A stretch of DNA of 64,000 bases. Source: a virus. Shown here piece by piece: positions 6,312-59,896 of the stretch. The notes below the pieces were generated by a model, which saw nothing but the letters and a program-made list of their open reading frames with translations, had not been told where the DNA came from and ran no database searches. Positions within the stretch are counted from its first letter, which is position 1; every line of letters begins with the position of its first letter. The stretch spans positions 20,499 to 84,498 of the IMG/VR virus record IMGVR_UViG_3300013132_005564; one strand, 5' to 3'. The position numbers and the translations under genes were made by a program.

Positions 6312-8105
6312 ATGAAAATTTTGCGGAATCAGGACACCAAGTCGGCGACGTCAGAATACGTCCTATCGCTCGCAGAGCTCCAGGAACTGGAGGAAAACGA
6401 GCCGGATGACGACCTCCTGCTCCCGGTCCCGAAGGGGGACCGGTTCTACGCCAAGCAAGCCATTGACGACGTCCTCTCCGGTTACATGATGAGTTCCAGC
6501 GCCGTCTACGACGGCATAATCATCCACGACGCAAAGACGATCGGCCCAGAACTGGCAAAGGACTTGCGGGATGCGCTGGTCTTCGTCTGGGAGCAAAAGG
6601 CCCTCGGGGCCACCATCGGCGGCGGCAAGCCGTCGGGTGGCGGCTCCGCCGAAGACATGATCGACAGGGACGGGGACGGATACATTTACGACGGAACCCC
6701 GCAGGAGCAAAGAGTTCCGTACAAGCGCCGCGACGGCAAACCGGTCGGCGGGGGTGCTCCTGAGGGGATGGAGGCGCGACGCAGGCAGTTCGTGCGTGGC
6801 GAGGCCGCCAGGCAGGGCGTGCAACTAAACCGGGGCCCGAAACGATCGGAGCAGGAGAGAAGATTCAGGACCGAGGCGAGAGCGCGATTCGACAGGATAG
6901 CGCTCGAGGGTGAGGGATTCATTCCCGCCGACAGAATAGAAGCGGGAGATAAGCGCAATTTCGAGAACCGCATGGGTGACGTCAACGCGGGAAGAGTCGA
7001 CGATCAGGGCAGAAGCGGTTTCGGTTACGGTGGGGAGCCAGCTCCGTTCAATCCGGGACAGCGAGGCAAAAGACCCGACACCTCCTTCCAGGACAACGAG
7101 GACGCCCGCAACCAAGGCAAGCGCCCCGCCGGCAGGCCCGTGGACAGGCTGCCCGGTGCAGGCGGACCAAGCGGGAGTCTCAACCCCGGACAACGAGGGG
7201 CCAGACCCGACACGTCCAATCAACGAGCGGAAGACGCTCGCAATCAAGGCAAGCGCCCCGCCGGGAGACCGGTCGACAGACTGCCAGGAGCGGGCGGTCC
7301 CGGCTACGACGAATCTTTCGGTAGAAACGAAAGTCGTCGTCAGCAGGGAATGCGTCCCGCGGACACCTCGAATCAGAGAGCGGAAACGGCTCGTCAAGCT
7401 GGGTCTCGTCCGCAAAGACCGGTCGACAGGCTTGGTGCGGCAGGTGGCCCCGGTTACGACGAATCTTCCAATAGAGCTGAGTCCGCCAGGATGCAGGGAA
7501 TGCGTCCTGCCGATACCTCTTCGCAGAGGGCGGAAAGCGCAAGACAAGGCGCCGCTCGTCCGCAAAGACCGGTGGATCGTCTGACTGGTCCCGGTTACGA
7601 CGAATCTTCCAATAGAGCCGAGTCGGCGAGAATGGGTAGGTCTCGTCCGGCCGACACTTCTTCTCAGCGGGCGGAAAGCACTAGGCAAAATCGCTCACGC
7701 CCACAGGGTCCTGCCGACAGAATTTCTGGCCCCGGTTACGACGAATCTTCCAATAGAGCCGAAGACTCGAGAATGCAGGGTCGTCGCCCGACGGACACCT
7801 CCAACCAAAGGGCCGAGTCATCCAGACAAGGAGCGTCGCGCCCGAATCGCCCAGTAGACAGACTTGGCGGATCCGGAAATCGCAGGGCCGACGGATCTAG
7901 CAACGCGGCCGAACGAAACAGAATGAATAGATCTCGTCCGGCGGACCGTTCTTCGCAACGAAACGAAGACGCTAGACAGGGACGCGCCGCTTCGGGAACG
8001 AGGAACGCCCAGCAGAGACCGCCCGACAGGATCGACACCTCGGGCAACAGATCTCGTAGATTCGGCAGAGGGCAAAGCGACTACCTATACGGTGGCGACG
8101 CGTAA
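6312..8105 (+). CDS. Putative internal head protein with KALGATIGG/DRDGDG motif and R/G/Q/S-rich repeats
   Basis: ORF 6300-8105; GGAGG before ATG 6312 favours that start. Shared motif at 6597-6710; C-terminal half made of imperfect repeats. Confidence 0.75.
   Translation: MKILRNQDTKSATSEYVLSLAELQELEENEPDDDLLLPVPKGDRFYAKQAIDDVLSGYMMSSSAVYDGIIIHDAKTIGPELAKDLRDALVFVWEQKALGATIGGGKPSGGGSAEDMIDRDGDGYIYDGTPQEQRVPYKRRDGKPVGGGAPEGMEARRRQFVRGEAARQGVQLNRGPKRSEQERRFRTEARARFDRIALEGEGFIPADRIEAGDKRNFENRMGDVNAGRVDDQGRSGFGYGGEPAPFNPGQRGKRPDTSFQDNEDARNQGKRPAGRPVDRLPGAGGPSGSLNPGQRGARPDTSNQRAEDARNQGKRPAGRPVDRLPGAGGPGYDESFGRNESRRQQGMRPADTSNQRAETARQAGSRPQRPVDRLGAAGGPGYDESSNRAESARMQGMRPADTSSQRAESARQGAARPQRPVDRLTGPGYDESSNRAESARMGRSRPADTSSQRAESTRQNRSRPQGPADRISGPGYDESSNRAEDSRMQGRRPTDTSNQRAESSRQGASRPNRPVDRLGGSGNRRADGSSNAAERNRMNRSRPADRSSQRNEDARQGRAASGTRNAQQRPPDRIDTSGNRSRRFGRGQSDYLYGGDA
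7040..7960 (+). repeat. Imperfect in-frame tandem repeats (GPGYDESSNRAESAR..G.RPADTS.QRAE..RQ...RP.RPVDRL)
   Basis: Repeated DNA such as ggttacgacgaatcttccaatagagc occurs three times, and the peptide unit recurs several times. Confidence 0.85.
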
Positions 8106-8117
8106 ACGAGCGAGTCA

Positions 8118-8321
8118 ATGAACGGCAGACCAAGCGGCGGGTACACCCGCGGGAACCGTGTTATGGGTTATGATAAACCTACACAAAATAACGCAGTCAA
8201 ATTGAAATATCACTGCATTGCGACGGGCGAGAAACGCCAGTTTCCGTGCGGCAGTTGCGTCAACCACAAGGGTTGCCTGGCGACGACGATGCAATACAAG
8301 GAGCGAAAACATGGAACCTGA
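8118..8321 (+). CDS. Small Cys-rich (putative Zn-binding) protein
   Basis: 67 aa ORF filling the gap; HCIATGEKRQFPCGSCVNHKGC resembles MCKATGETVMEPCAECKGDC in the next gene. Confidence 0.6.
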   Translation: MNGRPSGGYTRGNRVMGYDKPTQNNAVKLKYHCIATGEKRQFPCGSCVNHKGCLATTMQYKERKHGT

Positions 8322-10323
8322 GACCGGAGCACCAACCGTAAAGATCGGCGACGACGGTCAGGTCTTGCAGTGCGCCAAGGGTGCCGAGACGGCTGCCTGC
8401 GGCTACAAGGCCGGTGACGCCGTTTGCGCGGCGTGCGGCGCCACGGCGGTCGAGGTGAAGATGTACGGCGAAGACGGTGCCGACGGAATGATGTGCAAGG
8501 CGACCGGCGAGACGGTGATGGAACCCTGCGCCGAGTGCAAGGGCGACTGCTCCGCGATGGCCTTCAAGGGCGAAATGCCCGCCCAGTTGCTCGAAAGATT
8601 CAAGAAGAAGAAGAAGACGGGTGGCAAGAATCCGTTCGCCGAGGAAGACGAGGAAGACGAGGAAGACGAGGAGATGTCGGAGAAGGGCGAAATGCCCGCC
8701 CAGTTGCTCGAAAGATTCAAGAAGAAGAAGAAGACGGGTGGCAAGAATCCGTTCGCCGAGGAAGACGAGGAAGACGAGGAGATGTCGGAAAAGGTCGCCA
8801 TGTACGGCGCCCCGCCGGCGAGAGCCTATGGCGACTTCTCTGACGACGAGGAGCTGGGAATCGTGCAGGAAGCCGACACGGAGGACGACGAGGAGCTCGA
8901 CATTGAGGAGCCGGAAATGGAAGATCCCGACGAGGAGGTCTCCGGGTCGTACAGCAAAGGTGTTGGCGGACGACGGAGGGTGCCGGTAAGACCACGACGG
9001 ACGAAGGGTGCCTACACCGGCGACCCCATGGACGACGAGGATTACGACGACGAGGAAGAGGAGGGGATGGAGGAGCTGTCCCTTGACGAAGAAATGGACG
9101 AACCAGGCGAAGTCGAAATGCAGGAAGACATGGAGAGATCGGGTTACATGTACCGAAAGTCGGACTATGCGAACCTGAGGCTCGCAACGATGGGCTTCAA
9201 GCAGGGCGAGATGGGGACCAACCCGTTCGTGTGCGCAATCGAGAGGAAGCTGTACCCCGCCAACTCTCCCGTGTGCGAGAACTGCCCCGGTGGTTGCGTG
9301 AAGGAGGGCGACATGCCCGCGCTCCTGGAGATGGAGGGCGTCGCCGAGGACATGTTCAGCGGCAAGGTCCTTGACTCGGGTTACTCGGACAAAGCCGACA
9401 TCTTCGTCGTCGACGTGGAACGCAAGGACGGAAAGCCGGTGGAGGTGTTCTTCGACGGCACGACCGGAGAGTGCTACGGATGGCACATGCTCAACGACGA
9501 AGTCCTGAACGTGAAGTCTGGATTCCGCCCGAGCGAGATGATCGGGTTCTCGGAGGCTGCGCAGATAGCCACCAAGAGCATCAACGGCGACGTCGTGTCC
9601 GTCGAGGCAGATCTCTTCGAGGGTTTCGACAGCTACGCAGTCGAGATAGAGGGCGTGGACGGCAAGTCGTACGACGTGTTCGTGTCCCTTGACGGCGACA
9701 TTCTCGGATACGACACCTACACGCAGCAGGAGGCCTTCGCCATTGAGTCCGAGGCCGCCGAGATAGCCCTCAAGCGCGCCTACGGCGACGACGTCAGGAA
9801 GCAGATGGCCGAGCGCGGCGACGCCATGGAGGACGGGGAGATGCCCATCGCAAACGACTCGGACCTGAGGAACGCCGTGATGTCGTGGCCGAGGTCCAAG
9901 AAGCGCACCGAGGCGAAGGAGCACATCATGGCGAGGGCCAGGGTCCTCGGTCTCGAAAAGTCGCTCCCAGACGAGTGGTTGCAGGAGAAGAAGCAGAACG
10001 AGGAGGCGAAGGGGGACGCCAACTTCCTCTCGAGTCTTGCCGAGTTCGAGCTGATCACCGAGGAGATCAAGTCGTCCAACTCCGAAGAGGATGAGGCCGA
10101 GCTGTACTTCAAGCGGATGTTCAGCGACGAGCAGCGCGAGGACGAGGCCAAGAAGGGCAACGCCCTACCCGACGGCTCGTACCCGATAGTCAACGAGACT
10201 GACCTCAAGAACGCGATCCAGGCGTACGGCAGGGCCAAGGACAAGGACAAGGCCAGGGCCCACATCGTCAAGCGCGCCAAGTCCCTCGGCAAAGAGGATT
10301 TGATTCCGGAAAACTGGAACTAA
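8311..10323 (+). CDS. Acidic head-associated protein: Cys clusters, two PepSY-like segments, two C-terminal LPDGSYPI..DL.NAI repeats
   Basis: AAGGAG before ATG 8311 (MEPETG). Very D/E-rich middle. PepSY-like EAAQIATKSINGDVVSVE...YAVEIEGVDGKSYDVFVS. Duplicated C-terminal domain (DGEMPIANDSDLRNAV / DGSYPIVNETDLKNAI) of a type I recognise from phage head/protease-associated proteins. Confidence 0.7.
   Translation: MEPETGAPTVKIGDDGQVLQCAKGAETAACGYKAGDAVCAACGATAVEVKMYGEDGADGMMCKATGETVMEPCAECKGDCSAMAFKGEMPAQLLERFKKKKKTGGKNPFAEEDEEDEEDEEMSEKGEMPAQLLERFKKKKKTGGKNPFAEEDEEDEEMSEKVAMYGAPPARAYGDFSDDEELGIVQEADTEDDEELDIEEPEMEDPDEEVSGSYSKGVGGRRRVPVRPRRTKGAYTGDPMDDEDYDDEEEEGMEELSLDEEMDEPGEVEMQEDMERSGYMYRKSDYANLRLATMGFKQGEMGTNPFVCAIERKLYPANSPVCENCPGGCVKEGDMPALLEMEGVAEDMFSGKVLDSGYSDKADIFVVDVERKDGKPVEVFFDGTTGECYGWHMLNDEVLNVKSGFRPSEMIGFSEAAQIATKSINGDVVSVEADLFEGFDSYAVEIEGVDGKSYDVFVSLDGDILGYDTYTQQEAFAIESEAAEIALKRAYGDDVRKQMAERGDAMEDGEMPIANDSDLRNAVMSWPRSKKRTEAKEHIMARARVLGLEKSLPDEWLQEKKQNEEAKGDANFLSSLAEFELITEEIKSSNSEEDEAELYFKRMFSDEQREDEAKKGNALPDGSYPIVNETDLKNAIQAYGRAKDKDKARAHIVKRAKSLGKEDLIPENWN
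8566..8790 (+). repeat. Near-perfect in-frame tandem duplication (117 nt + 108 nt) encoding KGEMPAQLLERFKKKKKTGGKNPFAEEDEEDEE(DEE)MSE
   Basis: Two near-identical DNA units start at 8566 and 8683; the second lacks one DEE unit. Confidence 0.95.
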
Positions 10324-10334
10324 GGGGGATCGAG

Positions 10335-13300
10335 GTGACTCGCCTCGAACGACACCTGACCAAAAGCCCGGGTGAGAAGTCGCTCGGACCGACCATCGGT
10401 GGTGCACCGAGGAACCTGAATCCGTTCACTGCAAGGGACGCCGACCTGGACCTGGTGGTCCTTGAGGACATCGAGACGATCAACTTCGGTCGAGGCGTCC
10501 CGGACCCGACACCCGGCGGAGCCGCGGAGACGCCGTCTGCGCCAAGATTGAGATCGTCCCTCTACGCGAACGACGAAAATTTCGCCGTCGCGGCGATGTC
10601 CGGCCCGGATCGTCGCCGGAGTTTCAGTGAGGAGAAAGACCCAAGCGACATGAGCAATCCGGACGGTCACTTCCCGCGAGAATCCGGACCGATGTGGAAA
10701 GACACGAATTTCACGGCCCTGAACCTCGCGCCGAGGACGCGGAGAGGCGCCAGCCCGGCTTCGGTGAACACGTATCTCCACGCCGAATGGACCGAGCCGT
10801 ACTGGGACGCCGTCAGGGACGACACGGGGATATGGAACTCCCCGCCACCGCCCGAGATGGAGGTCGAGCGCGCCATCTACGACGCCATGAAGAGAGAGAC
10901 GATAGATGTCGGCGGGTACAACGTTCCGTTCCCCAGGCATCCGAAGGAATCCGACTACCACCAGGAGACCGACTCGACGGGTGCCACCTTCACGCACCTC
11001 CGTGCCACGCGAAGTTTCCCCTTCCGCGACAGGGAGAACTCAAGGTGGACGGACGGACACCCGTTGTACCACGCGACACCGACCGGCTCGTTGCCGAAGA
11101 TACTCGCGGAGGGGCTGGTCGCAAGCGCCGAGCGTCAGTTGTGGTTCGGGGCGTCACCGACGGTGTGGAACGAGCAGTTCCCGCACAACGCCCCCCTTCG
11201 GCTGAAGTCACCGGTCAAGGGAATGTCGTTCCTGCGGATCAGCCCGACCGACGCAATGAACGAAAGGCTCTCCCTCCTCGCAAGGGTGAGCGATGTCGAT
11301 CGAGCCACGCTTCCCGGCCATCTGGCGATCGATTCGGCTGGAAATCCAATCGGGCCCAGGGATTCCAGGACGCAACGGGCGGTTGGCCTCTACGGCGACG
11401 CCCTATTTTTTGACGACGTCAAGATACCGGGAGAGAACATCGAGGTCCTGAACCAGAACGGAGAATGGATCCCGTTGTACAAAACGGACCTTTCGGACGT
11501 GGTTTTTGACCCCTCGGACGGCGCCGACGCGGGCATGGGCAACGAAGGCGGCCCGAAAGGGAAAAGGATTTTCAGCAGGTTGTTTCGCGCGAGGGACCGC
11601 GGTGATTCGCAACCACCGCAGGAAGTCGTCCCGACGCCAAAAAGTTGGAAGAGCAACTACTCGAATTCTTACGGGGGAGACGAGTTTGTCAAGGGGGAAC
11701 AGAGGCTGGAGAGAATAAAGCAGCAGGGTTTGGCCGCATCGGGCGAGTGGAGAAAGATCCACAACGACCACTACGACTGGTGGGCCTTCCCGATAGACCG
11801 AGGAAGCGCGTCGTTCGGCGAGACCTTCAACGTGGCGGGCGATCCGCTCGAGAGACTGAAGAAGGACCCGGAATTCCTCAGCAGCCTGGCCAAAATCATG
11901 GAGGTGCAGGCGGCCGCCCTCGGCTGGTCCCTCTACGAGGGCAAGTATTTCGACCGGCTGGATTGGGACAAGGGTCAGGATTGGAACATGGCCTACCCGA
12001 CCAGACTTTGGAAAATGACCAGATCCGCCCAGATCTTCGGCCTTGAGCGGGAGTTCGAGTCTCTGCTGGACCTCCAGGAGTCCCTCGAGGCGGGGGGGAT
12101 CGTGTTCGGCAACCATCGCTCCTACTGGGACAACCCGGGGACGGTGGACGACGTACCCTCGCTCGGAAAATCGTGGACGGAGAGGGAGGATGAACGAAAG
12201 AAAACACAAACGGCGAGTGGCGCCGCCAGCTGGACCAGCCCGTACCGTTCGCAGCCCGAGTATCCCAAGCAGGGTTCCGACGATTCGCAAATGACGCTCC
12301 TGGAGGAGGATCGGGCGTGGGACGCCTATGACAACTACGAACCTCCGGTCTTCCCGGTCGTGTCCGACGCCGAGGAGCTGGCCGACATCCTGTCGGAACC
12401 TGACGAGGTGATCGAGTTCGGTTACCCGTACGAGCGAATAGACAAAGAAACGAGACAGCTGATCGCCGACGACATCTTCTTCGCCGTCTCCCTGTTGATG
12501 GACGGAGAGTTCCCCGACGAGGAGTTCACGGACAGGCTGGAGTCCGCCGAACAGATGAGGCGATACGCGGACGAGCAGGAGGGTCTGTACCCGGACGACG
12601 GGGACATCCTGTACGCCCTGGCCGACGCGCTGGAGAACCCCGTCTCGTTGTACGAGGACGCCGTCTACGAATCAACCGACGGCGAGGCCGGGATGGGGCG
12701 CAAGCCGTCGCCCGAGGTGCGGGCACTCGTCGAACGGGTGGCGGAGATGCACAACGGGGGGAAAAGCGCCACGCAAATCGCCGAGGAGTTGGGGATCACG
12801 CGCTACAGGGTGCACAATTACCGAACGATTGCGAGACGACGGGGATTGCTGACTTCACCCCGTCAACGCACCGCGGCAGAAATGAATGAGTTGATTGGCG
12901 AGGCTACGAGGTTGTACAACGAGGGGAAAACCCGGCCGGAAATGGCGAGGGAAATGAATCTTCCCGTGAGCACGATCAACAACCTTCTGCAACGAGCAAA
13001 CGAGCGCAAGCTACTTCGCAACTACAACCCTCGAGGGTCCGGAAACTTCAAGAGAACCCTCAGAACCCCCGGAAACATCGCCGCCGCCGCCGACAAGTAC
13101 AGGCAGGGAAAGACGACAGCTCAGATCGCCGAAGAACTTGCGTTGACGGAAAGCTCCGTTATCAAACTAATTGGGGAGGCGAGACGCCTGGGGCTGGACG
13201 CGGGACCCCGTCGCTATCGAACTTCGCCCGAGCTTGAGGAACTGATGCTGGAGGTGGCGATCAAGTACGAGGAAGGAAAGCTAATGCGCGAAATTGCGCA

Positions 13301-15626
13301 GGAACTGGACGCCGATGAAACTACTGTCCAAAATCTGGCAAACAGGGCCGCGCAACTGGGTTTGATTCGGAGGGACAGAGTAGAGAGAGCGGGCGACGCC
13401 TCCGATGAATTGACGAAACAGATCATGGCCAAGCTCAGGGAGGGCAAGAGCCAGCGACAAATCGCGCGGGAACTGAACGTTCCCTACCATCGGGTCAACA
13501 ACTTGATCAAGAGGGCCAGACGGGTTCTTGCTCCAGACCCAAGAAAGGCCAGGTTGAGGAACTCATCCGAGTCCCTCGGGGACTCGGGAGCCCCCGACGG
13601 CGAGGCGGGGATGTCCTCCCGAAAAATCCCCAAATTCAACGGAGGCCACAGCAGCAGGGGGAGGGGGACCCCGTCGGGTGACGGCAAGGACCAGGCGATG
13701 AGGGATGTGGCAGACAGCGCCATAGTTGAGTTGGCGAACGACGAGAGGAGCAGTTCGCGTACGACGCTGGAGACGCTCGGGTCGTACCGGGCCGGGAGCA
13801 TGGTCGTGATGCTGGCGAGAAACGGGGAGCTCCGAGGCCTTCCACTGAGGGACGAAACCATCCAGGCAATAACGAACGCCCACGAAGACGGTGCAACGTT
13901 CGTCGTTGGGGACATGCCGGGCGTGGATTCGCAGTTCGTGGACTATTTGGAGAAAATCGGGGCCGACTACACGATCTACCATGCGGGGAGTTCGCCGAGG
14001 TTCAGTCCGCAACCGCCCGACGCGCTCGGGGACGCGCCACCCGAACTCCTGGCGCGCGCGACCGACGACGAGGCGCAGCTAAACGTCCTGTACTCGGTAC
14101 CCGGGGTCGCGGCAAGCGTCAGGATGAGGAGCACCGACGGTGCGCCCGTCGCCCCGGGCAAGAACGCAATCATGAAGCCGTACCTTCTGGCTCCGCACAT
14201 AGACGTGAACGATTTGGACGCGTCGGACCCGGCAATCCAGTCCCTTTCGCCGGCACTGAAGGCCGCCGGGTTGGGATCCTACGAAGTCACCGGGCACTCG
14301 TCCCCGAAGGTCCAGGGACCGGTGGTGAAGGAGTTCGCGGACAGGCTGATAGGTCCCAGTGCCGTCGCCAACGCCGTGCTCGGAACGTTCCCGACCGCGG
14401 ACGAGATGCTGACGATATACGCAGTAAACGCACTCATCAGGGCGAGGGCGGAGTACCTTTCCGACTCCGTCCTCGACGCGGACCAGGTAAACGAGGCAAT
14501 CCTGTTCGGAAGAGTCCTTCAATTACCCCGGAACCTGTGGGAGAAATCGCGGCTCGACCGCTCCGTATACCTCGACCCGTTCTCCTACTTCGGCGGCAAG
14601 TCCAACTTCCTCAAGGCCGTGATCGACGCGTTGCCGGAACGGGTCAGATCCGGGCTGGCCTTCTCCCCCGCCGCGGAGAGGATACCCGGCGTCACCTATC
14701 AGGACCGGTCCTGGGGGGACACCTCGCACTTCGAGAGCATCATAATCAGGGAAGACGACGACCTCTCCAGGAGGTTCGCCCCCATGGTCAGGAATCAGGC
14801 GAAAATAGTGGTGGACCACGCCAGGCGACACGACGAGCTGACGAAGAAGTGGGCGCAAACCGCCTACGACCTGATGAAGGAGGCTGGCCTGACGGACGCA
14901 GAGGTGGCTTTCGTTATCAACGAACACTGGACGAAGGCATCGAGGTTCAAACTCGCCACGGTGCAACCGGGGAGCGTGCTGGGTCACGCGGCGAGGTTGG
15001 GCGTGAAGGCGTTCTCCTCGAGGTACTCGCCGATAAACAGGGCCGTCACCAAGCGCATAGAAAGCGTCCAATCCGGGGGCCTCCGCGAGGAAGAGGATTT
15101 CGGCCTGCACGAGTTCTTCCACCACTACCTGGGCCAGGGTTTCACCAGGCACGGGGAGTACGTAGCGTTCAGGGGTCCGGCCGATCTGATCGATTCCTAC
15201 CACGGGCACATGCAGTGGGCCTGGAACGACACCGGTCAGCTTGGGATGTTCGTCTCCAGGGTCATGACGCAGGAGTTCGGCCGCGACGAACAGCCCGGCG
15301 AGTCGGTCGCCGTTTCGTCGCGCGTACTCTTTGACACCATCGGCAGGGCCATCTACGACAGACTTAAGGAGATGCTCTCTTCGGCCGAGGACAGGCGAAA
15401 AATAATGGATCAGGTCTTCCCAGAATTCCACGGGTTGCCCAGCGAGGACGAGGCGAAGATCAAGGAGCTGATCCGAAGGCAGTTCGCGGTCAGGGACTTG
15501 AGCACCCGCCAGTTTGCGGATAACATGCCCATACTCAGACTGCTCACGGCGCAGGACTTGCTGGTGCCGAAGGCGTACTGGCCCTACGGGGGCGAAACCA
15601 GGATAATCGGAGGGAGCAAACAATGA
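10335..15626 (+). CDS. Giant polyprotein-like protein: leader, ART-like, OGFr-like, HTH array, SLOG-like and HExxH domains
   Basis: GTG start. LYHATPTGSLPKILAEGL (ART/Tpt1-like), IHNDHYDWWAFP (OGFr N-like), about five GKxxxQIAEEL-type HTHs, FVVGDMPGVDSQFVDYL (SLOG-like), LHEFFHHYLGQGF. Linkers at 10590, 11529, 12687, 13605. Confidence 0.85.
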   Translation: MTRLERHLTKSPGEKSLGPTIGGAPRNLNPFTARDADLDLVVLEDIETINFGRGVPDPTPGGAAETPSAPRLRSSLYANDENFAVAAMSGPDRRRSFSEEKDPSDMSNPDGHFPRESGPMWKDTNFTALNLAPRTRRGASPASVNTYLHAEWTEPYWDAVRDDTGIWNSPPPPEMEVERAIYDAMKRETIDVGGYNVPFPRHPKESDYHQETDSTGATFTHLRATRSFPFRDRENSRWTDGHPLYHATPTGSLPKILAEGLVASAERQLWFGASPTVWNEQFPHNAPLRLKSPVKGMSFLRISPTDAMNERLSLLARVSDVDRATLPGHLAIDSAGNPIGPRDSRTQRAVGLYGDALFFDDVKIPGENIEVLNQNGEWIPLYKTDLSDVVFDPSDGADAGMGNEGGPKGKRIFSRLFRARDRGDSQPPQEVVPTPKSWKSNYSNSYGGDEFVKGEQRLERIKQQGLAASGEWRKIHNDHYDWWAFPIDRGSASFGETFNVAGDPLERLKKDPEFLSSLAKIMEVQAAALGWSLYEGKYFDRLDWDKGQDWNMAYPTRLWKMTRSAQIFGLEREFESLLDLQESLEAGGIVFGNHRSYWDNPGTVDDVPSLGKSWTEREDERKKTQTASGAASWTSPYRSQPEYPKQGSDDSQMTLLEEDRAWDAYDNYEPPVFPVVSDAEELADILSEPDEVIEFGYPYERIDKETRQLIADDIFFAVSLLMDGEFPDEEFTDRLESAEQMRRYADEQEGLYPDDGDILYALADALENPVSLYEDAVYESTDGEAGMGRKPSPEVRALVERVAEMHNGGKSATQIAEELGITRYRVHNYRTIARRRGLLTSPRQRTAAEMNELIGEATRLYNEGKTRPEMAREMNLPVSTINNLLQRANERKLLRNYNPRGSGNFKRTLRTPGNIAAAADKYRQGKTTAQIAEELALTESSVIKLIGEARRLGLDAGPRRYRTSPELEELMLEVAIKYEEGKLMREIAQELDADETTVQNLANRAAQLGLIRRDRVERAGDASDELTKQIMAKLREGKSQRQIARELNVPYHRVNNLIKRARRVLAPDPRKARLRNSSESLGDSGAPDGEAGMSSRKIPKFNGGHSSRGRGTPSGDGKDQAMRDVADSAIVELANDERSSSRTTLETLGSYRAGSMVVMLARNGELRGLPLRDETIQAITNAHEDGATFVVGDMPGVDSQFVDYLEKIGADYTIYHAGSSPRFSPQPPDALGDAPPELLARATDDEAQLNVLYSVPGVAASVRMRSTDGAPVAPGKNAIMKPYLLAPHIDVNDLDASDPAIQSLSPALKAAGLGSYEVTGHSSPKVQGPVVKEFADRLIGPSAVANAVLGTFPTADEMLTIYAVNALIRARAEYLSDSVLDADQVNEAILFGRVLQLPRNLWEKSRLDRSVYLDPFSYFGGKSNFLKAVIDALPERVRSGLAFSPAAERIPGVTYQDRSWGDTSHFESIIIREDDDLSRRFAPMVRNQAKIVVDHARRHDELTKKWAQTAYDLMKEAGLTDAEVAFVINEHWTKASRFKLATVQPGSVLGHAARLGVKAFSSRYSPINRAVTKRIESVQSGGLREEEDFGLHEFFHHYLGQGFTRHGEYVAFRGPADLIDSYHGHMQWAWNDTGQLGMFVSRVMTQEFGRDEQPGESVAVSSRVLFDTIGRAIYDRLKEMLSSAEDRRKIMDQVFPEFHGLPSEDEAKIKELIRRQFAVRDLSTRQFADNMPILRLLTAQDLLVPKAYWPYGGETRIIGGSKQ

Positions 15627-15814
15627 ACCAGAACAACAAACGAGACGACATGCCGATCCTGAGGGTCGTCGACTCCGACTCCAAGCTGGAATCCATCGGG
15701 GTGGCCCTGGCGGCGGCGGCGACCGAGGAAGCGGAGTCGCTGGCCGAAGCGCAGGAGGAATGGGACGAGATGGTCAGGACAAGGAGCGGAACCGCCGTGC
15801 GTGCCAGTAGCTAA
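15623..15814 (+). CDS. Small protein coupled to the upstream giant gene (immunity-like position)
   Basis: ATGA overlap with the stop of 10335-15626; GGGAG upstream. Confidence 0.6.
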   Translation: MNQNNKRDDMPILRVVDSDSKLESIGVALAAAATEEAESLAEAQEEWDEMVRTRSGTAVRASS

Positions 15815-15882
15815 GAAATATACGTCTATAATTGTTTGATGATTGTCACGTTCCGCCCCCCGGAACAGAGGGTTTAGGACAG

Positions 15883-18800
15883 ATGTCGCCGATTTCGTCA
15901 AGTTTTCCGCTCAACGCAAGGCTCGTCGCCAAGCACGACAGACGCTCACTGTACGCGCTCAAGGACGGACGCCTGGCCTTCGTGGACCACGCCACGAACA
16001 GGGTGTTCTTCGACGGCGGCAGGGACGCGGGCGGCAGGACGTACGGCAGCGGGCACAACGCGGCGTGGGCCGACTCGAGGATCGACTCGATCACCCGAGC
16101 GGGCGGATCCAGCGCGTTCTTCTCGTTCAAGGCCGCAAAGTTCGGGCAGACGGCGATGCCGGTGGGCGAACCGGTGGACGAGGAACCGATGGAGGACACT
16201 CCGTTCAACAGGGCGCGCAGGTTCATACCGAAGGAATTTCTAGAGTGGTCCGCCAACTACAAACCGGGGGACGCGCTCCCGGTGATGCCCCCCGGCTACG
16301 ACAAGGCGGATCACCTGGACAAGCACCCGGCGAACACCGACAACTACGCGCAGGCGGGGTTCTCCGTCGACGACGTCGTCGTTGCCTCCCTCAGGGCGAT
16401 GGGCATGCCGGAAGTCAACCCAGAACTGGCCTTCATGCCCGAGCCAGGCGAGACAGAGACGAAGGGCTTGCCTCCGCTCGAGGTCAAGGGGATCCTGGGC
16501 AGGGAGATCAGGGACATGGCGCGCAACATCGCCGACTCAATACTCACCGCGAGGGGGTTGTGGAAGGACTCGCTCAACAAGATACGCTGCGGCTCGGGAC
16601 CGAACGCCAACAGGTTCACCGACATATTCGGCACGGGCTGCGACGTCCCCGGGTCGGGGGTGGCGGGCAACGTCGTCGGGGCGGTCCGGGGAGCGGTTGA
16701 TTTGCCGGGTCCGGCCGACGAGATCTTCGGTAGGGTCGAGGGGACGAGGGAGAAACTCGCCGATGTCGTGGAAGGTTCCGATCTTGCGGCGACCCGCGGC
16801 AGCCTGAGATCGCTCCTTGACAGGGCGTCTACTCGGGCACGCGGCGGCGACACGCCACACATAATCGGCGACAACCCGATGGACGATCACGACCCGATGG
16901 CGGGGATGGATCGGACCGGGGCAAGGTACTCGGACAGGACGAAGGGCGGCGGGATCCGGGCGTTGGTGAGTCGCAACATCCGAAAGATGCGAACGAAACG
17001 CGAGGAGAAGAGGTACGACGACGCCGCGCAGAACTACGCGAAGTGGCAGAGCTCAGACGACTACAGGTCGTGGGTCGCGGGCCTCGGGAGGGAACCGACG
17101 GCGCCGGAGAAGCTGGACAGGTTCGCCCAGTGGTCCGGCCTGAACCCGTCGCGCGTCGCGCGGAACCCGGACGGAAGCCCGGTGATGATCGACACCGGGA
17201 GGGTCGACGCCGCAGGCAACCCGATCATGGCCCTCAAGATGGAGGGCGACTCGTCCCCGCACAGCTTCATGGGCATCAACGACATCGCCGCGGGCACCGG
17301 CGGGAAGACGATGTTCGAGGCCCTCGTCGAACAGGCGCTTGACCCGGTCCACGGGGGTGGTCGCCTCGGCATGAGCGACAGGGAAAAGGCGAAAATGAAG
17401 AAGCAGGTTGAGGAGCGTCTCGAGGAGGTCGTGGCCCAGATGATCCACGCCGCCACCAGCAAGGGCGGTCCGCTGATGATCGAGCAGGTGCAACCGGACG
17501 GAACCGTCAGGCGCGTGCCCAACCCCGACCCCGAGGTGAGGGCGAGGGCCGTGACGGCGATGCCTGGTTACCTGAGGCTCAAGGGCGTGGAATTTGCCGG
17601 CGGCGATCTGGCCAACGCGGTGATGGTAACGAGCGTCAACGGTTTCGTGCAGGATCCAAGAGATTTCGCCGGGGGGGAGCGGGTGCCGTTGCTGGACGAA
17701 TTTGGCATACCGAGGGTCGACTCGGCTGGCATGCCCATGTACAGACCGCTGAACCTGTCGGGTGATCTCTCGGCACAGCAACGAGGGTTTGCGATGCAAA
17801 CAGGTGTCTATCCCGAGTGGCTCATATCCGGGGATTCAACACCGTTCCACTTCCAGATATCGATAGACCCGCATTTTCTGACCAGCGAGAGGTACAGGGG
17901 GGAGGTTGCAAGGGAGTTCGGCGCCCACCACCTCGGGATGGAGCCCTCCTCGAAGGCCTTCCTCGCGCACACCCTCGACCACGAGTTTAACCACGTGGAC
18001 GATTTCGCGCACCGCTTGTCGCAGAGGCTCGGCTACACCAGCGAGTCGGAGTTCCGCATGAGGTTGCTGGACCAGTGGGACCCCATAAGCCAGGCCTACA
18101 TGAGCGTCAGGGCGGGCAACGAGTTCGTTGAAGTACCCGGCGGCATCAGGCCGACCAGCGTCAGGGCCGGAACCATCGACCTGCGCGCCGACGCCAAACC
18201 GGGAACCTTCCTGCGATCCCAGATAGACGAACTGGACCGCATACTCAACCACCCCGACACGACGACCGTGACGACCGCAGTCAAGCAGCAAGCGCTGTGG
18301 ATGTTCTACATGAACAATCTGAGGTTCGACGAGGGCATCGCGTCGGCGTACGCCAGGTTCTCGATGGACCAGGGGATGAACAAGAAGACCGTGGCGGAGA
18401 GACTCGAGACGATACGTGAGAACCTGGCAGCGCGCGGATACTCGGAGGAGACGGGAGTCCCACGTATGAAGTTTTGGGACGACATGCTGGACACGCCGAC
18501 CGGGGTGTGGAACCCGTCCACGGGCAGATTTGATTTCTCGGCAGGACCGTTCCCCGCGAACCTTTCCGGCATGAGCCCGCGCGGCCAGGCCCGCCTCGAC
18601 AACGCCGCCTCGAACCTGATCTACGGGTACATCGGCGGCACGTACGCCGGTACCCACGACTTCGAGTTCGTGGCGGAGCTGAGGACGCAACTCAACAGGC
18701 CCGGGGCGCTCAAGGACATCAGGGAAATGCTCGCCGACACCGAGAGGAACCCGTACGGGGTCACCGAGGAGGAGTTCTTCACCACCCTCGCGAAGTTCGT

Positions 18801-21800
18801 CGGTCAGGAGGAGGTCTACAGGTTGCACGGCAGGTCGGACCTCGCAAGGAGGTTCGAGGACGTCTACCCGACACCGCCACCCGGCGGCGGGGCGGGCGGG
18901 GGCGGAAGCCCGCCCACGCCACCCAGACCGCCCGGGGGAGGACTCGGCCCAGGTGTGCCGTCGTCGCCGAGACCACCGAGGGCGGACGATCCCGACGTGC
19001 CCTCGGACGCTCCACCCGCCCCGGACGGGGGATGGCTGAGGGGCTCCGCAACGAGGACTACGGCTCCCGACGGCGGAAGGTTGAGGGGTTCGGCGACCAG
19101 GCCGCCGGCTTCGAGTCCGGACGAACCCGGAGACCCCGGTGAACCTCCGGCGTCCCCGCGGTTGCGCGGGACCGCAACCAGGCCGACGATTCCGATGCGT
19201 CCGTCGGACGAAGATTCCGAAGCTCCCGGCGACGCCCCGGAGCCCGGGGCTCCGTCGAGGGTCCGTGGCACGGGAGTCAGGAGACCGACCAGGCCGAAGA
19301 CCGACGACGATCGCGTGGAGACGACCGACGACGATCTCATAGAGCCGACGATCAGACCCGAAACCGACGCGGACCGAGTGTCGCCCGAAAGACGGAGGGC
19401 CGACACGGCACGGGAACGAAGGCGCCGCGAGGTCATGGGCGACGATGACGGCGACGACACGCCGACATCGGTGAGCGACCTGCTCGACGAAGGCAGGATG
19501 TGGGTCGGCGACACGCGGGATGAAAAACTCGGGAGAAGAAACACCTTCGTGGTGGAACCAGCGCGCAAATGGTATGGCGACGACGAAGAAACGTTCAGGG
19601 CGATCGTTGGTCCGGACGATCTGGGCGAGAGACAAACCAAGCTGGATCTCGAGAGGAGAAGGGACGTCTTGCGTGAGTTGCTCGCCGACGTCCCCGCGGG
19701 AACGCGAGACGAGGAATGGAATCAAAAAGAAAGAATGTTGGACCTTGCGCTCGGTGAAATCTACGCGCAGGAAAATACTCTTGGGTTGCCAGGACCAGAA
19801 CGAATCAGCTACGAGGATGCGGTCAGGAAGAGGAACGCCCCGGCCAACGAGATGGCCGAGCGACGCGAATTGTTCACCGCCGAAGAATTCGACCAACTGG
19901 CGGAGACTGCGGTGCAACGAATCGAAAAAGGAAGACGAGGAAGCGATCTCGACCTTACTTCGCGTGAAACCATTAGGGAAATTCGCTCGGGCGCCAAGAA
20001 ACGTCAGTGGGCCATGAGAAGGCACGCCCAGTCGAAAGACCCACAGGAGCGAAGGGGCATGGACATCTTGAGGGCCGCCCAGGAACTAACACTGATGAAC
20101 GATTTGGGCGACGTGGATGATCGCCTCATGGACGAAGGACTGAAAGACTTGTCGGAACTCGCCGAACTCAACGGAACTCCCCTGTATAACGTTGGTGGCA
20201 GAAGCTTCACCCTGGAATCCTTGCTCCCCGACTGGAAACGGGACGGGACCGGATCCGCCGATCTCACCGACGCCGCGAGTCGCCTGGCGGCCCTGAACGA
20301 AAAGGGCCTGGTGTTCGGGGTTTTCACGGAGGAGGACGCGGACGATCTACTCACTCTCAGGGGGGCCAAACCCGACGCACCATCGTTCTCGGTGAGGGAC
20401 GAGGCCGAATTGCCCAGGCAGAGGATCGGCGGCGACGGTGCCGATGCCGGCATGGCTGGCGGCGACAGATCCAGCAGGTGGAGCGTCGGCGTAGGAAAGA
20501 GCAGGGACGACGCCCAACGAAGAACCGACGATTTGGTCGACTACCTAGCCGAGGGGGACGGGGCGTATCAGACGCCCGAATGGTCGCGGAGTCAGGCTCA
20601 GGCGGCGAGGAACCAGGCCTACAAACAAAGACAGCGACGAGACAATCTGATCAGGAACCTGGAAGGCATTCGTAACGGAACAATCAATCTACCGGCGAAC
20701 CGGCGCGAGCGATCGATCGAGGATCTACAGATCCAACTAGCCGACGCCGAGGCGAAGATACTCCAGCACGAAACGGCGGCGAGGCTGCTCGACCAGCACG
20801 CGGCGAACATAGACGACAGAGTTCGAGTGGACTCCCTCAGAACGCAAGTCGATTCGGATTTGGGACTTGACAACTTGAACCCGGTGAGCTCGCGCACATT
20901 CGGGGACGTCGACGGAATTCTCGGAATAGACGACGGAATGTTGATGGATGGCACGTTTGACGCCAGTGCCGGCATGGCGAGCGGCAACAGATCCAGCTCC
21001 CTCGGGAGGATCGCGAGGGGGAGCTTGAGGGACCGGGCGATGGCCAAGCTGCTCGACAAGGTCCTGGACAGGACCGGCGCGGACGAGGACACCAGGGATA
21101 AGGTGAAGATCGGCGTCGGGCTGGCGACGGCGTTCAGCGCGGGTGGGCCGGCCGGCGCGGCCACCTACGTGGCCGTCGAGGCCGCGAGGAGGGGTGGCAG
21201 GGACCTCGCCGAGTTCACCATAGGCGAGTTGCTGAAGCGCGGCAAGATCGACGACGAGCAGGCCCGCAAGGCCATGGCCGCCGTGGACCGGATAGCCCCC
21301 GATGGTCTGCCGGACGACGCGAAGAGGCGGCTCGGCAGGGCCTTCTCGGAGGCGGCCGACCTCTTCAACGAGAGAATAAACACCCCCGAAAACAGGAGAA
21401 GGCTCGCCGAGATGGGCGAGAACGTCGTTGATTCGGCGAGGCAGCGAGCCCGGGACCTGGGTGGGAGAGTCAGAAGACGGCGCGATTCCGACTCGCCGTT
21501 TGACGCCGATCCTGACGGATTGATTTACGAAGGGCCGAGGTTTGACGACGGACCGAACGCCGGGATGGCGCTTTACAGGCAGCAGAACGTCGTCACAACG
21601 ACGAACGACCCGCCGACCTCAATGAACCCGGGAACGATAACGAGGGACGGAGGATTCCAGGCTAACACGTTTGATTTCGCAACTTACGAATTCGACGGGC
21701 CCGACGGCACGGAACGAATAATCTTCGAGGACCCGAATCTCGTCAACATGGACGATCCTTCAATTCGGGTCATCCCGAGAAATCCGTACGTGATCACCGG

Positions 21801-56166: not shown

Positions 56167-57513
56167 ATGTCGCAAGACACGAGCAGACTCCGCGAGTTGC
56201 AGTCAGCACTCCGCGAGAAGATGCAGCACAACAAGGAAATTGCGGACTCGTTCCGCGTTGACAACGGAACGGTCGTCGTCACGACCGAGCAGAAGTCGGC
56301 GTTCGACAAGAACATGTCCGACATCCGCGAGATCAAGGGCCTCATCGAGGGTCTCGAGTCGCTGAGCAAGGTTCAGGACTGGGGTTCGGCTCCTGCCGAC
56401 GAATCGGTGGCGGCGCAGGCAGCGGCCTACGCACCCGTTCAGCAAGCTCCAAGGTCCGTCGGACAGCAGTTCGTGGACTCGCCGGAGTTCAAGTCGCTCA
56501 ACGGTGGACGCAACGGCGCCAACATGCATCAGCCGTGGCAGTTCAACGGCTCGTTGACGTCTTACGGCGTCAAGGACGTCTACACGTCAATGGCCACTGG
56601 CGCCCTCGGCAACGGTGCGGATCCGAACTTCGGAACCGTCCAGCGCGACCCGATGGTCGCCCAGCCGACCAGGACGAAGCGAGTCAGGGACCTGTTCCCG
56701 TCGCGCACGACCACGGCAGCGGTCATCGAGTACTTCCGTCACCTGGGCTACACGACGCCGGGCGTGACAGGAGTTAGCTCTTCCTCGTACGCAACGGCAA
56801 ATGCCGCAGCACCGGTCGCTGAACGCGACGGCTCGGTTTTCGCCGCCAAGCCGCAGTCGAGCCTGCAGTTCGTCGCCGAAGCAGCTTCGGTGCGCACGCT
56901 GGCCCACTGGGAAGCAGCGCACCGCAACGTGCTGGCCGACGAGCCGCAGCTCCGCAGCATCATCGACAACGAGCTCATGTACGGCCTGCGTCTCCTCGAG
57001 GACACGCAGATCCTCAACGGCAACGGCACGGGCGAGAACCTGAGGGGCGTCCTCCAGACGTCCGGCATCCAGACCTACAACTGGTCGTCGGGTCAGTCCG
57101 GGGACAACAGGGGAGACGCGATTCGTCGCGCCCTGACCCTGTCCTTCCTCGCCTACTACGAGCCGACCGGCGTGGTCATGCACCCGAGCGACTGGGAGAA
57201 GATCGAACTCTCAAAGGACGACAACGGCCAGTACCTGGTCGCGGTGTCCGTCGCTCTCGGCGGTCAGCCGAAACTGTGGAGGACCCCGGTAGTCGAGTCA
57301 CCGGCAATCGCCGAGGGCACCGCCCTCGTCGGTGCGTTCGGTACCGGCGCCCAGCTGTACGACCGCGAGCAGGCGAGCATCAGGGTCAGCGAGCAACACG
57401 CCGACTTCTTCGTCCGCAACGCAATCGTCATCCTGGCCGAGCAGCGCCTGGCGCTGGCGGTCAAGCGTCCGGAGGCCTTCGTCAAGGTCACGTTCAACAG
57501 CGCGCCAGCCTGA
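56167..57513 (+). CDS. Major capsid protein, HK97 fold, with N-terminal coiled-coil scaffold (delta) domain
   Basis: AGGAGG RBS. Motifs VRDLFP..TT....IEY, VRTLAHW....R.VL.D.PQL.SII...L.YGL...ED.QILNG.GTG.NL.G, VVMHP.DW, LWRTPVV, FVRNAIVILAEQR...AV.RPEAFV. Confidence 0.95.
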   Translation: MSQDTSRLRELQSALREKMQHNKEIADSFRVDNGTVVVTTEQKSAFDKNMSDIREIKGLIEGLESLSKVQDWGSAPADESVAAQAAAYAPVQQAPRSVGQQFVDSPEFKSLNGGRNGANMHQPWQFNGSLTSYGVKDVYTSMATGALGNGADPNFGTVQRDPMVAQPTRTKRVRDLFPSRTTTAAVIEYFRHLGYTTPGVTGVSSSSYATANAAAPVAERDGSVFAAKPQSSLQFVAEAASVRTLAHWEAAHRNVLADEPQLRSIIDNELMYGLRLLEDTQILNGNGTGENLRGVLQTSGIQTYNWSSGQSGDNRGDAIRRALTLSFLAYYEPTGVVMHPSDWEKIELSKDDNGQYLVAVSVALGGQPKLWRTPVVESPAIAEGTALVGAFGTGAQLYDREQASIRVSEQHADFFVRNAIVILAEQRLALAVKRPEAFVKVTFNSAPA

Positions 57514-57539
57514 TCTGATCTGAGCTGACGCAAAGACGT

Positions 57540-57582: not shown

Positions 57583-57658
57583 TCGCTCTGTTGACGACCT
57601 ACCACGACGAACGAACTTTCGTGGGACAATTGTCCCAGAAATAAACGGGAGAAAATCC

Positions 57659-59896
57659 TTGGACCCAAACGAAATACTCGCGAAGCTGGTCTCAGGCGAG
57701 CTCTTGGTCGTCGTCCAGCAGGAACCGACGAAGCCCGTCCCGACCAAACCCAAGCTCGTCCCCGAGGAGCAGGAGCTCGCCGACTCGCTCGTCGCCATCG
57801 CCAAGAAGTACGGCAAGTTCAACGAGGACGAGACCGGGATCTGGGCCGGCTACGAGACGGCCAAGAACAACGTCGTCGCGCACATCGGGGTCAAGTGCGC
57901 CAACTGCGCCCTGTACGAGGGCAACGGAGTGTGCAAGATCATCGCCCAGAAAGTCGAGGACGGCGGCAAGTGCAGGTTCGCCGTGATACCCGACGGGGTG
58001 GTCAACGGCGTCTACGACCCGGCCAAGACGCCCGTCGGTCCTGTCAGCTCTGGCATGCGGAAGATAAAGGTCAAGGAGGAATCGGCGGCCTCGTGTCCCA
58101 AGGCGACCAAGGACATAGCAACGAACCTGAAGAACAGGGCGAAGGCGATCAAGACTGCGACGTACGGGCCGCTGAACCCGAAGGAACCGAACGAGGCCTT
58201 TTACAAGAAGCTCGGCGCCGAGTGGGACGTCTCGGCGGACCAGGCGCGCAAGCAGAAGTGCGGCAACTGCTCAATGTTCATCGTCACGCCCGAGATGAAG
58301 TCGTGCATCGAGAAGGGCGTTACGGGCCCCAAGGGCAAGGACGAGTGGGAGGCGATCGACGGAGCAGGCCACCTCGGGTACTGCGAGGCCTTCGACTTCA
58401 AGTGCGCCTCGGAGAGGACCTGCAGGGCGTGGGTCACGGGCGGACCGATCACCAAGACGAAGTCGGTGAACGTCCGCCAGTCCGTGAAGGCGCTCGGGGC
58501 AACCATAGGCGGCAACACCGCGGTCACCGACGCCGCCGACATGATCGACCGGGACGGGGACGGAACGATATTCGACGGAACGCCAGACGAGCAACCAGTC
58601 AAGAGGAAGCCCGGCCGCGGCCAGCCATATCAAAGAATGGACAACTCCTTCCTCGAGAAGCGCAGGAGGAGGCACGTTGACCGGTCGCTCAGGGAGCAGG
58701 GCATCACCCCGACTCAGGGCAACCAAATACAGGAAATGGAAGATGGGTCGCTTCAGCTTTACGGACGCCCGGACGAGGAGAGGGAGGCGAGGGGACAGGC
58801 GAGGGCCGACTTCACCGTCGACGAGGACAGGAAGAGATTCGTGAACAACCAGCTCCGCAAGCGCGGGATCCAGGGCACGATGGGACCGTTCCGGGACGAC
58901 GAGGAGCGTCAGGCCAGGCGAGAGGCGAGGGACGAGTACAACCGTCGCATGAACGCGGGCAAGCCGAGACAGAAGCCGTCCATCGGGGAACCCGCCAAAC
59001 CGCCGGTGACGTATCCACCTGGATACGTTCCCGGAAAGCCTGCCGACAGGTACCCGGACCCCGGTGCGTACGTCCCGGGTAAACCAGTTGATCGTTACCC
59101 CCAGGCGCAGAAGCCGGGAGTTCGCTTCCCCACGGCCGACGACGCCAGGAAGGTGAACGAGCGAAAGTTCCCGCCCCCGAGGGGCTCGGCGAAACCAAGC
59201 ACCGGCGGCGTAGTGGACGACGGAAGGTACATCAACGACAACCCGCAGTTCTACGACTTCCAGACACCGGAGGACAGGCAAATCCTCGACCAGCGCAATG
59301 ACAAGAAGCGCCAGGCCGCGCACGACGCCGCCAAGGAGCGTTACGCCGCATCGGACAGGGAGAGGACTTCAAGTCGTCCCGCCCCGGCTAGGAAGCCAGA
59401 CCCGAGTTTCCAACCAGGCGCAATACCAACCGGCTCTCGGCAGGCAAATGATGCGGGCTTCAAACCTGGCGCAATACCGGGCGGATCTCGTCAAGTAAGA
59501 GATGCGGGGAGGGAACCGCGCAATCTAAAGGAACGCTTGGTCACCAACGTCTTCAAGGACGACGACGAGGATCGGGGACGAACGAGTGATCCATACCTGA
59601 GGAATCCATCGAATCGGCCTACGGCGGAAATGCCCGTTTATCGTAACACGAGGCCTACGGCGAAAATGCCCGTTTACGAGCCCCCGAAACAAACCGGTGG
59701 AGGGAGATTCAAGGATCGGGACGACCGACGACCGAGACCGGCGACCGTAAATCCTCGCGAAATTCCGGGCCGCGACGTGCAAAAGAATCCTCCGTCTCGT
59801 ACAAAACCGATAACCAGGACGCCGAATCCGAACCGCCCGAATCCCGACTCCGACCGAGATCAACGACCGCGTACCGGAAGAAATTTCGGCTCGTAG
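57659..59896 (+). CDS. Head-associated protein: two Cys-rich domains, KALGATIGG/DRDGDG motif, P/R-rich low-complexity tail
   Basis: CANCALY...CKII...KCRF (HiPIP-like spacing) and CPKATKDIATNLKNR...YGPLNP...CGNC...YCEAFDFKC...TCRAW; shared motif at 58487-58594; TTG start uncertain. Confidence 0.75.
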   Translation: MDPNEILAKLVSGELLVVVQQEPTKPVPTKPKLVPEEQELADSLVAIAKKYGKFNEDETGIWAGYETAKNNVVAHIGVKCANCALYEGNGVCKIIAQKVEDGGKCRFAVIPDGVVNGVYDPAKTPVGPVSSGMRKIKVKEESAASCPKATKDIATNLKNRAKAIKTATYGPLNPKEPNEAFYKKLGAEWDVSADQARKQKCGNCSMFIVTPEMKSCIEKGVTGPKGKDEWEAIDGAGHLGYCEAFDFKCASERTCRAWVTGGPITKTKSVNVRQSVKALGATIGGNTAVTDAADMIDRDGDGTIFDGTPDEQPVKRKPGRGQPYQRMDNSFLEKRRRRHVDRSLREQGITPTQGNQIQEMEDGSLQLYGRPDEEREARGQARADFTVDEDRKRFVNNQLRKRGIQGTMGPFRDDEERQARREARDEYNRRMNAGKPRQKPSIGEPAKPPVTYPPGYVPGKPADRYPDPGAYVPGKPVDRYPQAQKPGVRFPTADDARKVNERKFPPPRGSAKPSTGGVVDDGRYINDNPQFYDFQTPEDRQILDQRNDKKRQAAHDAAKERYAASDRERTSSRPAPARKPDPSFQPGAIPTGSRQANDAGFKPGAIPGGSRQVRDAGREPRNLKERLVTNVFKDDDEDRGRTSDPYLRNPSNRPTAEMPVYRNTRPTAKMPVYEPPKQTGGGRFKDRDDRRPRPATVNPREIPGRDVQKNPPSRTKPITRTPNPNRPNPDSDRDQRPRTGRNFGS

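Follow-up and report, generated by a model that had tools for sequence, protein, structure and literature searches.

How can protein chains of several thousand residues be brought into a phage head? This question is raised by a virus contig of 84,498 bp (IMG/VR record IMGVR_UViG_3300013132_005564, ~62% G+C), in which the genes from a protease-bearing protein to a protein of 5330 amino acids (aa) span about 63 of 84.5 kb. We analyzed a stretch of 64,000 nucleotides of this contig (bases 20499-84498, hereafter the window, to which positions refer unless the contig is named) and describe a peptide of 40-60 residues, hereafter the tag, that recurs in the head-module proteins; carriers of the tag with many effector-type domains are encoded between the portal and capsid genes. 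Judged from its sequence the tag is a real, conserved and undescribed peptide family. We propose, with about as much confidence as doubt, that it serves as a portable linear prohead-loading ('head-cargo') tag, a reading in which we infer loading, binding and cleavage from the architecture of the proteins.

The tag and its copies

The initial annotation listed six copies of the motif, and all six translate in frame exactly as quoted there, in long plus-strand open reading frames (ORFs) of 601, 1763, 917, 1827, 5330 and 745 aa. The claim that several head-region proteins have this motif in common was borne out and the set proved larger, as a seventh strong copy and a weak eighth were found. In an all-against-all BLASTP of the head-region proteins the shared segment gave E-values of 2e-4 to 3e-19 and little else was shared. 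A hidden Markov model built from the seven copies and run against the six-frame translation of the 84.5-kb contig returned only those sites (E 1e-20 to 1e-24), all remaining matches having E-values of 0.09 or worse. This distribution speaks for prohead loading, since each of the seven strong copies belongs to a different head-module protein and the rest of the translation has none. The statement that these proteins are otherwise unrelated was nearly right: by BLASTP the 601- and 745-aa proteins share 111 aa and the 1763- and 5330-aa proteins share 89 aa, the latter being the tag plus NFAxAAM.

The short form of the tag (KALGATIGG...DMIDRDGDGxIxDGTPxEQ) is found in the 601-aa protein (KALGATIGG...DMIDRDGDGYIYDGTPQEQ, 6597-6710, residues 100-137) and in the 745-aa protein (58487-58594, residues 277-312), which is encoded just after the capsid gene and has its tag in the same place in relatives. 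The copies of the giant proteins in the window have an extra 13-residue insertion (IPxINxGRGxPDP) between EG and TP. This long form is present in the 1763-aa protein (10377-10520, residues 15-62, with INxGRGxPDP), in the 5330-aa protein (40158-40307, residues 106-155) and, as a PPPHLVRNAD variant, in the 917-aa (27285-27419, residues 38-82) and 1827-aa proteins (33620-33751, residues 225-268); all six copies are on the plus strand. The seventh copy, residues 558-619 of the 4370-aa protease-bearing protein, is encoded at about contig 15315-15500, upstream of the window start, and the tags of this genome start at residues 15, 38, 100, 106, 225, 277 and 558 of their proteins.

Inside the 3781-aa protein, a weak match (RDLGGRV...FDADPDGLIYEGPRF, 21451-21543, plus strand; E 0.18, the best sub-threshold match) is plausible as a degenerate eighth copy on sequence grounds, and 8 residues behind it follows GPNAGM|A (21550-21570, plus strand), one of the Met-type linkers that we call joints. 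The ORF of this protein (15832-27177) has no N-terminal tag and begins at 15832 with TTG, the first codon directly after a stop. The 4370-aa and 3781-aa proteins also have in common a tag-free region of 550 residues (24.5% identity, residues 1379-1873 vs 3239-3732).

The pattern of the family is [KR]x[LI]Gxx[IL]G ... FDPxAxDxDxDGxVxEG-TP, composed of a basic/hydrophobic lead-in, [KR]x[LI]Gxx[IL]G, and an acidic core, (F)[DN]PxAxDxDxDxx[VI]x[ED]G...TP. In the general form the lead-in is followed by a Gly/Arg-rich spacer of 5-30 residues and then by (R)F[DN]PxAxD[GA]DxDG[LIV][VI]Q[ED]GT.F[EQ]RP. The short and long forms are one family, since the tags of relatives connect them: in L094, a more distant relative, the protease-bearing protein has FDP-NAIDGDEDGLVQEG-TPFERP at the equivalent position, and this sequence aligns with NPLTARDADLDRLVLEG[NPLINMGRGIPDP]TPFG in the window. 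D31, D33, E38, G46, G48 and DPTP are invariant in an alignment of 36 long-form sequences, and eight of its members keep the core without the KxLG part, which argues that the acidic core has a role of its own. No model in Pfam or PHROGs covers the tag.

The pattern of a DxDxDG-like calcium-binding loop, as suggested in the initial annotation, fits the two short copies and the ancestral form, which reads DGDxDG, but its Gly has been lost in four of the five giant-protein copies. Together with a hydrophobic position 8 and a later acidic residue, DxDxDG is found in the 601-aa protein (DRDGDGYIYD), the 745-aa protein (DRDGDGTIFD) and the clade consensus (DGDxDGLVQEG); the giant-protein copies without G6 read DADLDR, DADLDL, NADSDP and NADNDA, with D1 exchanged for N in two of them. 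No EF-hand family in Pfam matched the tag and no match to an EF-hand or dockerin fold was obtained. From these sequences, a calcium loop is a reasonable idea where the ancestral or short form is concerned and a doubtful one for four of the five long copies.

Structure predictions were made with AlphaFold2 (AF2). For the tag alone (36 sequences) the predicted local distance difference test score (pLDDT) of the core, residues 21-50, was 81-88 with a small beta bridge, and that of the KALG part was ~54; no analogue of this model was found in the Protein Data Bank by Foldseek or VIA-align. In the model of residues 1-640 of the protease-bearing protein (43 sequences) the folded parts were the Peptidase_S78 (S78) domain at 39-180, the helical DUF6321 region, 376-431 and 488-546. 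The tag stretch (548-640) had a pLDDT of ~30-50 and packed on no domain, the protease included. At this confidence the model speaks neither for nor against binding in cis. Because of the low confidence and lack of packing, the tag behaves in the model as a linear peptide on a flexible tether, and such a disordered stretch, taken with the well-predicted core of the tag alone, is what a docking peptide would be expected to show.

Even in the two closest copies only 8 of 16 codons are identical where the residues are identical, and roughly every second synonymous position differs between copies. This divergence rules out a recent duplication or gene conversion; as far as codons can tell, the copies are paralogues of old date whose peptide has been maintained by selection. 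The same result bears on the idea that the tag has no docking role and is an inherited spacer or recombination joint, travelling with shuffled head-gene modules and conserved mainly by descent. The tag is indeed located at module borders, and domain shuffling is visible. Residues 1-275 of the 745-aa protein (57659-58480) contain Cys-rich domains (KYGKFNEDETGIWAGY...CANCALYEG...CRFAVIPDGVV and GYCEAFDFKC...C.AW), and these recur within the protease-bearing proteins of two relatives (L167 and L151), which points to shuffling of domains among head proteins. However, the invariant residues of the tag persist across 36-39 distant sequences while synonymous sites have diverged, its flanks are wholly unconserved, and in this genome each protein has a single copy, always ahead of all joints. 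We regard a tag without any docking role as highly improbable.

Joints, protease and capsid

The 4370-aa ORF (contig 13644-26756) encodes an HK97-type prohead protease at residues 35-186 (Peptidase_S78, E 7e-11; phrog_80, E 1e-26), followed by DUF6321. Its C-terminal 2085 residues are in the window (1-6258, plus strand), and the N-terminal part with S78, DUF6321, the seventh tag and a joint at residue 725 (NFAIAAM|G) is encoded upstream of it; the protein also holds a sigma-r4 helix-turn-helix (HTH) and an exonuclease. The presence of the tag on the S78-bearing protein supports prohead loading, since the prohead protease has to be inside proheads.

Joints of the strict pattern A[AG]M[SG] number 21 on the contig, and none is found upstream of a tag in this genome. 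According to the initial annotation the first linker behind the tag is always the AAM variant, and the count upholds this: AAM is the first joint in five of five giant proteins, as compared to three of 16 later linkers (hypergeometric P = 0.003). These first joints are NFAIAAM|G in the 4370-aa protein, NFAVAAM|S in the 1763-aa protein (10581-10601), NFAMAAM|S in the 5330-aa protein (40344-40364), SPLAAM|S in the 917-aa protein (27534-27554) and ETRAAM|G in the 1827-aa protein (33926-33946), the last two being the sole joints of their proteins. They follow the tag at a distance of 18-106 residues, vs a mean joint spacing of ~800 residues, and NFA[VML]AAM[ST] is conserved in orthologues. In the short-form proteins a conserved Met is found 15-20 residues behind the tag, as (A/S)xGM|E in the 601-aa family (here APEGM|E, 6756-6773; SGM|E in homologues) and as (Q/E)RM|DNSF in the 745-aa family (here PYQRM|DNSF, 58625-58642), and all these sites of the window are on the plus strand. 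Some relatives have TISGAM|S, TGAM|S, TGSM|G or TGAM|A within 15-20 residues behind the tag.

In the proposed mechanism the tag would have originated in the S78-bearing protein and then been copied onto other head proteins. It would dock its carriers to a common inner component of the assembling prohead, either the capsid/delta domain or an acidic scaffold-like protein, and the carriers would thereby be co-assembled with the protease. The first Met-type joint that follows the tag, which is xAAM|S/G in the giant proteins and xGM|E or xRM|D in the two basic ones, would then be cut by the S78 protease, and this cut would free the cargo modules from the anchor. Candidate partners of the tag are the capsid protein or its N-terminal domain, a 701-aa scaffold-like protein and the portal-MuF protein.

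The HK97-fold major capsid protein (56167-57513, plus strand) matches Pfam Phage_capsid at E 1e-43 and shows a strong match to HK97 gp5 chains; the closest capsids from cultured phages, with ~45% identity, belong to Brevibacterium phage Cantare and to GMA6 and DalanDe, which are phages of Gordonia. Its NGxNM (residues 116-120, 56512-56526) is invariant in 39 relatives, the residues after the Met vary, and the motif sits at the boundary of the helical N-terminal (delta) domain and the N-arm. The Met at M120 is also kept in Cantare (RNTM) and GMA6 (SSTM). This conservation makes M120 a candidate maturation cut, which fits a protease cutting after Met.

A second candidate site in the capsid bears on a different reading of the tag, as a processing module in which [KR]|[AS][LI]G is the S78 cut site and the acidic core an exosite, with N-terminal protease or Cys-knuckle parts being severed there. 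HK97 gp5 matures at K103|S104-L-G (...FNK|SLGSDAD; mature chains of 282 residues vs a 385-residue precursor), and the tag front [KR]|[AS][LI]G is identical to this site, with K|SLG in the 1763-aa protein and K|ALG in the 601-, 745- and 5330-aa proteins. Furthermore, the protease is an HK97-family enzyme, most capsids of the clade have [KR]S[ILV]G as residues 96-99 (56452-56463), and some proteins of relatives begin exactly at M-AIG, as if a free end were wanted. On the other hand, the K of the capsid is not invariant whereas M120 is, and the eight aligned members without KxLG nevertheless keep the core. Chance alone would moreover produce a four-residue pattern several times in 20,000 residues, and 35 further conserved residues would be needless for a cut site. 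On balance we find a processing module unlikely. Placing the capsid cut by alignment with HK97 was also tried and set aside: K103|S104 falls opposite KDVYT|SMATG, which is neither of the candidate sites, so homology does not decide the cut site.

The alternative candidate partner is the acidic scaffold-like protein of 701 aa (8218-10323, plus strand; D+E 23%), which has no tag. The motif at its C-terminus also ends the protease-scaffold protein of Gordonia phage GMA6, and from sequence the 701-aa protein is probably a scaffolding protein. Within it EMPAQLLERFKKKKKTGGKNPFAEEDEEDEE is duplicated in tandem, and the motif that it shares with GMA6, PDGSYPI..DL.NAI...GRAKDK...HI.KRAK.LG..DLIP..W, is present twice.

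By analogy with encapsulins, prohead loading could take the form of a self-sufficient, transferable peptide that docks in a conserved pocket of the HK97-fold capsid protein, on its inner face or its delta domain, which we consider rather unlikely. If true, phages would have their own counterpart of encapsulin cargo loading, with a head filled with megadalton effector polyproteins, and one tag would bring in both the cargo and the protease that releases it.

Genomic setting and relatives

The gene order starts with the large terminase (minus strand), the portal protein and the 4370-aa S78-bearing ORF, followed by plus-strand ORFs of, in order, 601, 701, 1763, 3781, 917, 699, 1827, 365 and 5330 aa. 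Downstream of the 5330-aa ORF come the HK97-fold major capsid protein, the 745-aa protein and a staphylococcal-nuclease homologue. Many uncultured relatives are present in IMG/VR, and since the complete ones measure 148-160 kb with direct terminal repeats, the contig is probably a fragment of little more than half a genome. The only tail gene seen on it is a Neck1-like gene (minus strand, contig 1444-2157).

Among the tag carriers, the 1763-aa protein has an array of five HTH, and the 5330-aa protein has NUDIX and Zeta-toxin domains at its far C-terminal end. Both short-form carriers have long basic tails (K+R ~20%) rich in Pro and Gly (6780-8105 and 58650-59896), that of the 601-aa protein with Arg-rich repetitive units such as RAESARQ..RPQRPVDRL; going by these tails, the two carriers may condense DNA or serve as internal core proteins. 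A small Cys knuckle, DUF3721, precedes the tag of the 5330-aa protein by a short distance (39960-40064, residues 40-74), and likewise that of a 384-aa protein adjoining the capsid gene of a 148-kb relative (L017:8683-9837). DUF3721 (38862-38948) is also present, together with DUF5872, in the 365-aa ORF (38670-39767).

The portal protein (739 aa, contig 11367-13586, L001:11367-13586), encoded upstream of the window, has a MuF-like 'head morphogenesis' domain fused at its C-terminus: it matches phrog_2662 over the full length and phrog_2468 and phrog_3517 (MuF-like) at residues 495-737. This protein carries no attached cargo. The analogy to MuF drawn in the initial annotation holds in function only, the MuF-like domain being on the portal (residues 495-737) and no tag carrier having a MuF match.

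Such a portal leaves room for the tag as a portal or exit leader, that is, a calcium-binding acidic peptide that would hold the cargo end at the portal/MuF vertex or in a DNA-free channel and exit first via the tail. The first tagged gene is directly behind the gene of this cargo-free portal-MuF protein, the number of tagged proteins (seven) is of the same order as the 12 sites of the portal, and in the ancestral and short forms DxDxDG is present together with a hydrophobic position 8. The tagged genes, however, cluster around the capsid gene as much as near the portal gene. The glycine of the loop is gone in four of the five giant-protein copies, there is no EF-hand or dockerin match at the level of family or fold, and a cut at the joint behind the tag would separate the cargo from such a leader before ejection. 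A role at the portal is in our view quite improbable.

Profile searches of databases, which the initial annotation had proposed as a check on the motif, recovered the tag family, mostly as single copies in large proteins. In 1.84 billion representative proteins there were 72 matches at E <= 1e-3, ~45 of them single-copy matches in proteins of 500-6400 aa, and the offsets in these ~45 carriers (11-68, 103-163, 216-275, 514-575) match those in the proteins of the window. Multi-stretch matches (ITADSDSKVYDGTPLT repeats) were set aside as chance likeness to unrelated YDGTPLT adhesin repeats, and a distant carrier (P0045) used as query gave no related loci in viral contigs.

Among 80 metagenome loci found with the N-terminal region of the protease, 40 have the tag downstream of the protease inside the S78 ORF (residues 408-650), and three more have it in an ORF neighbouring the S78 ORF (directly behind the protease ORF in L134-L136). 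When loci were instead found with the capsid, 26 of 80 in IMG/VR had 1-5 tags; the tagged ORFs share the strand of the capsid gene and are found on either side of it in about equal numbers. These tags are often at ORF residues 4-30, and three proteins have two tags in one chain. In three near-complete and complete relatives (G001, G003 and G005) every tag found is encoded on the strand of the capsid gene and no more than ~35 kb away from it. Because relatives often show the tag at the very N-terminus, followed by a Met-type joint, the layout is that of a cleavable targeting peptide.

Several results weigh against prohead loading. The tag was not found in G002 or in the complete G004, two relatives whose capsids are similar, and roughly half of the related protease proteins are without it, so the tag is not indispensable. 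A tblastn of the general-form tag against 50,697 records of cultured phages gave no match at E <= 1, and the tag was not found in Cantare, GMA6 or HK97; in Cantare and GMA6 S78 is fused to an acidic scaffold-like tail that is tagless. No cultured relative bears the tag. The tag is also internal here, with 14-557 residues ahead of it, unlike classic N- or C-terminal targeting peptides. Finally, in a crude clade-wide test an [AGS]M joint was present within 60 aa of the tag in 30% vs a background of 27%, and since this is no enrichment, the coupling of tag and joint is established, at the level of sequence, for this genome and some relatives only.

The tag is common to the cargo and the maturation protease and stands directly ahead of the first joint, so that the loading step can be tested with few constructs. 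Prohead loading by the tag would give a rule for recognizing packaged effectors in uncultured HK97-type phages, could offer a way to load foreign proteins into HK97-fold shells, and bears on the relation of encapsulin-style cargo loading to phage head assembly.

Comparison with known systems

The capsid-targeting sequence (CTS) of phage T4 is an N-terminal peptide of ~10 residues on the internal proteins IPI-III and Alt, and is removed by the gp21 prohead protease at L/I-x-E. As in T4, where the cargo consists of injected effectors and is freed after loading, a short peptide is common to unrelated proteins, here putatively head-internal, and precedes a joint at which the protease would cut. 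The two peptides are not similar in sequence, however, and the tag described here is 40-60 residues long, internal and also present on the protease-bearing protein. It starts at residues 15-558 here, and at residues 4-30 in some relatives, instead of at the N-terminus. The protease is Peptidase_S78 of the HK97 type, with joints of the form A-[AG]-M, as compared to gp21 and L/I-x-E. The capsid-targeting role suggested in the initial annotation thus fits the architecture and this comparison, but the extreme N-terminal position and the gp21-type cut have no parallel in this genome.

The C-terminal tail of the HK97 maturation protease gp4 can reportedly carry foreign proteins into proheads. The protease family is the same and the element is likewise downstream of S78 (here S78 at 35-186 and the tag at 558-619, and downstream of S78 also in the 40 of 80 relatives), but no tag turned up when the HK97 head region was scanned for the pattern, and the gp4 tail shows no likeness to it. 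Moreover, the element here is on six or more other proteins, with up to 3700 residues of cargo behind it.

Encapsulin cargo-loading peptides and the scaffold anchor of herpesviruses are C-terminal and dock inside a shell of the HK97 fold, and in herpesviruses the assemblin-type protease cuts next to the scaffold anchor (M-site). The likeness is that of a linear peptide, and in sequence only a small-L-G-x-x-I-G flavour is shared. Those peptides are C-terminal whereas the tag is not, and its docking is proposed here by analogy.

In phiKZ/SPN3US-like jumbo phages, propeptides of ejection proteins are removed by the prohead protease (PMC7411985, PMC10052503). In these phages, as in the scheme proposed here, a large set of proteins enters the head in precursor form and is cut at a protease motif; the protease family and the cut motif (S/A/G-x-E) are different. 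We know of no single conserved 50-residue tag across the jumbo-phage precursors.

A further comparison is with the polyvalent proteins known from phages and conjugative elements (Iyer et al. 2017, PMC5512222), for which MuF fusion and autoprocessing by a metallopeptidase are named in the article; a term search of it returned no shared loading tag. As in that group, our carriers are giant multi-domain proteins of the head module with effector-type domains (Zeta toxin, NUDIX, HTH arrays and exonuclease), presumed to be packaged and injected. In our contig, by contrast, the MuF-like domain is on the portal and the tag is on the cargo.

Taken together, the principle, cleavable targeting peptides for head-internal proteins, is known, and what is new is the sequence family and its setting. 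This setting is unusual in that it combines an HK97-type protease, giant polyvalent proteins and a tag that the cargo shares with the protease.

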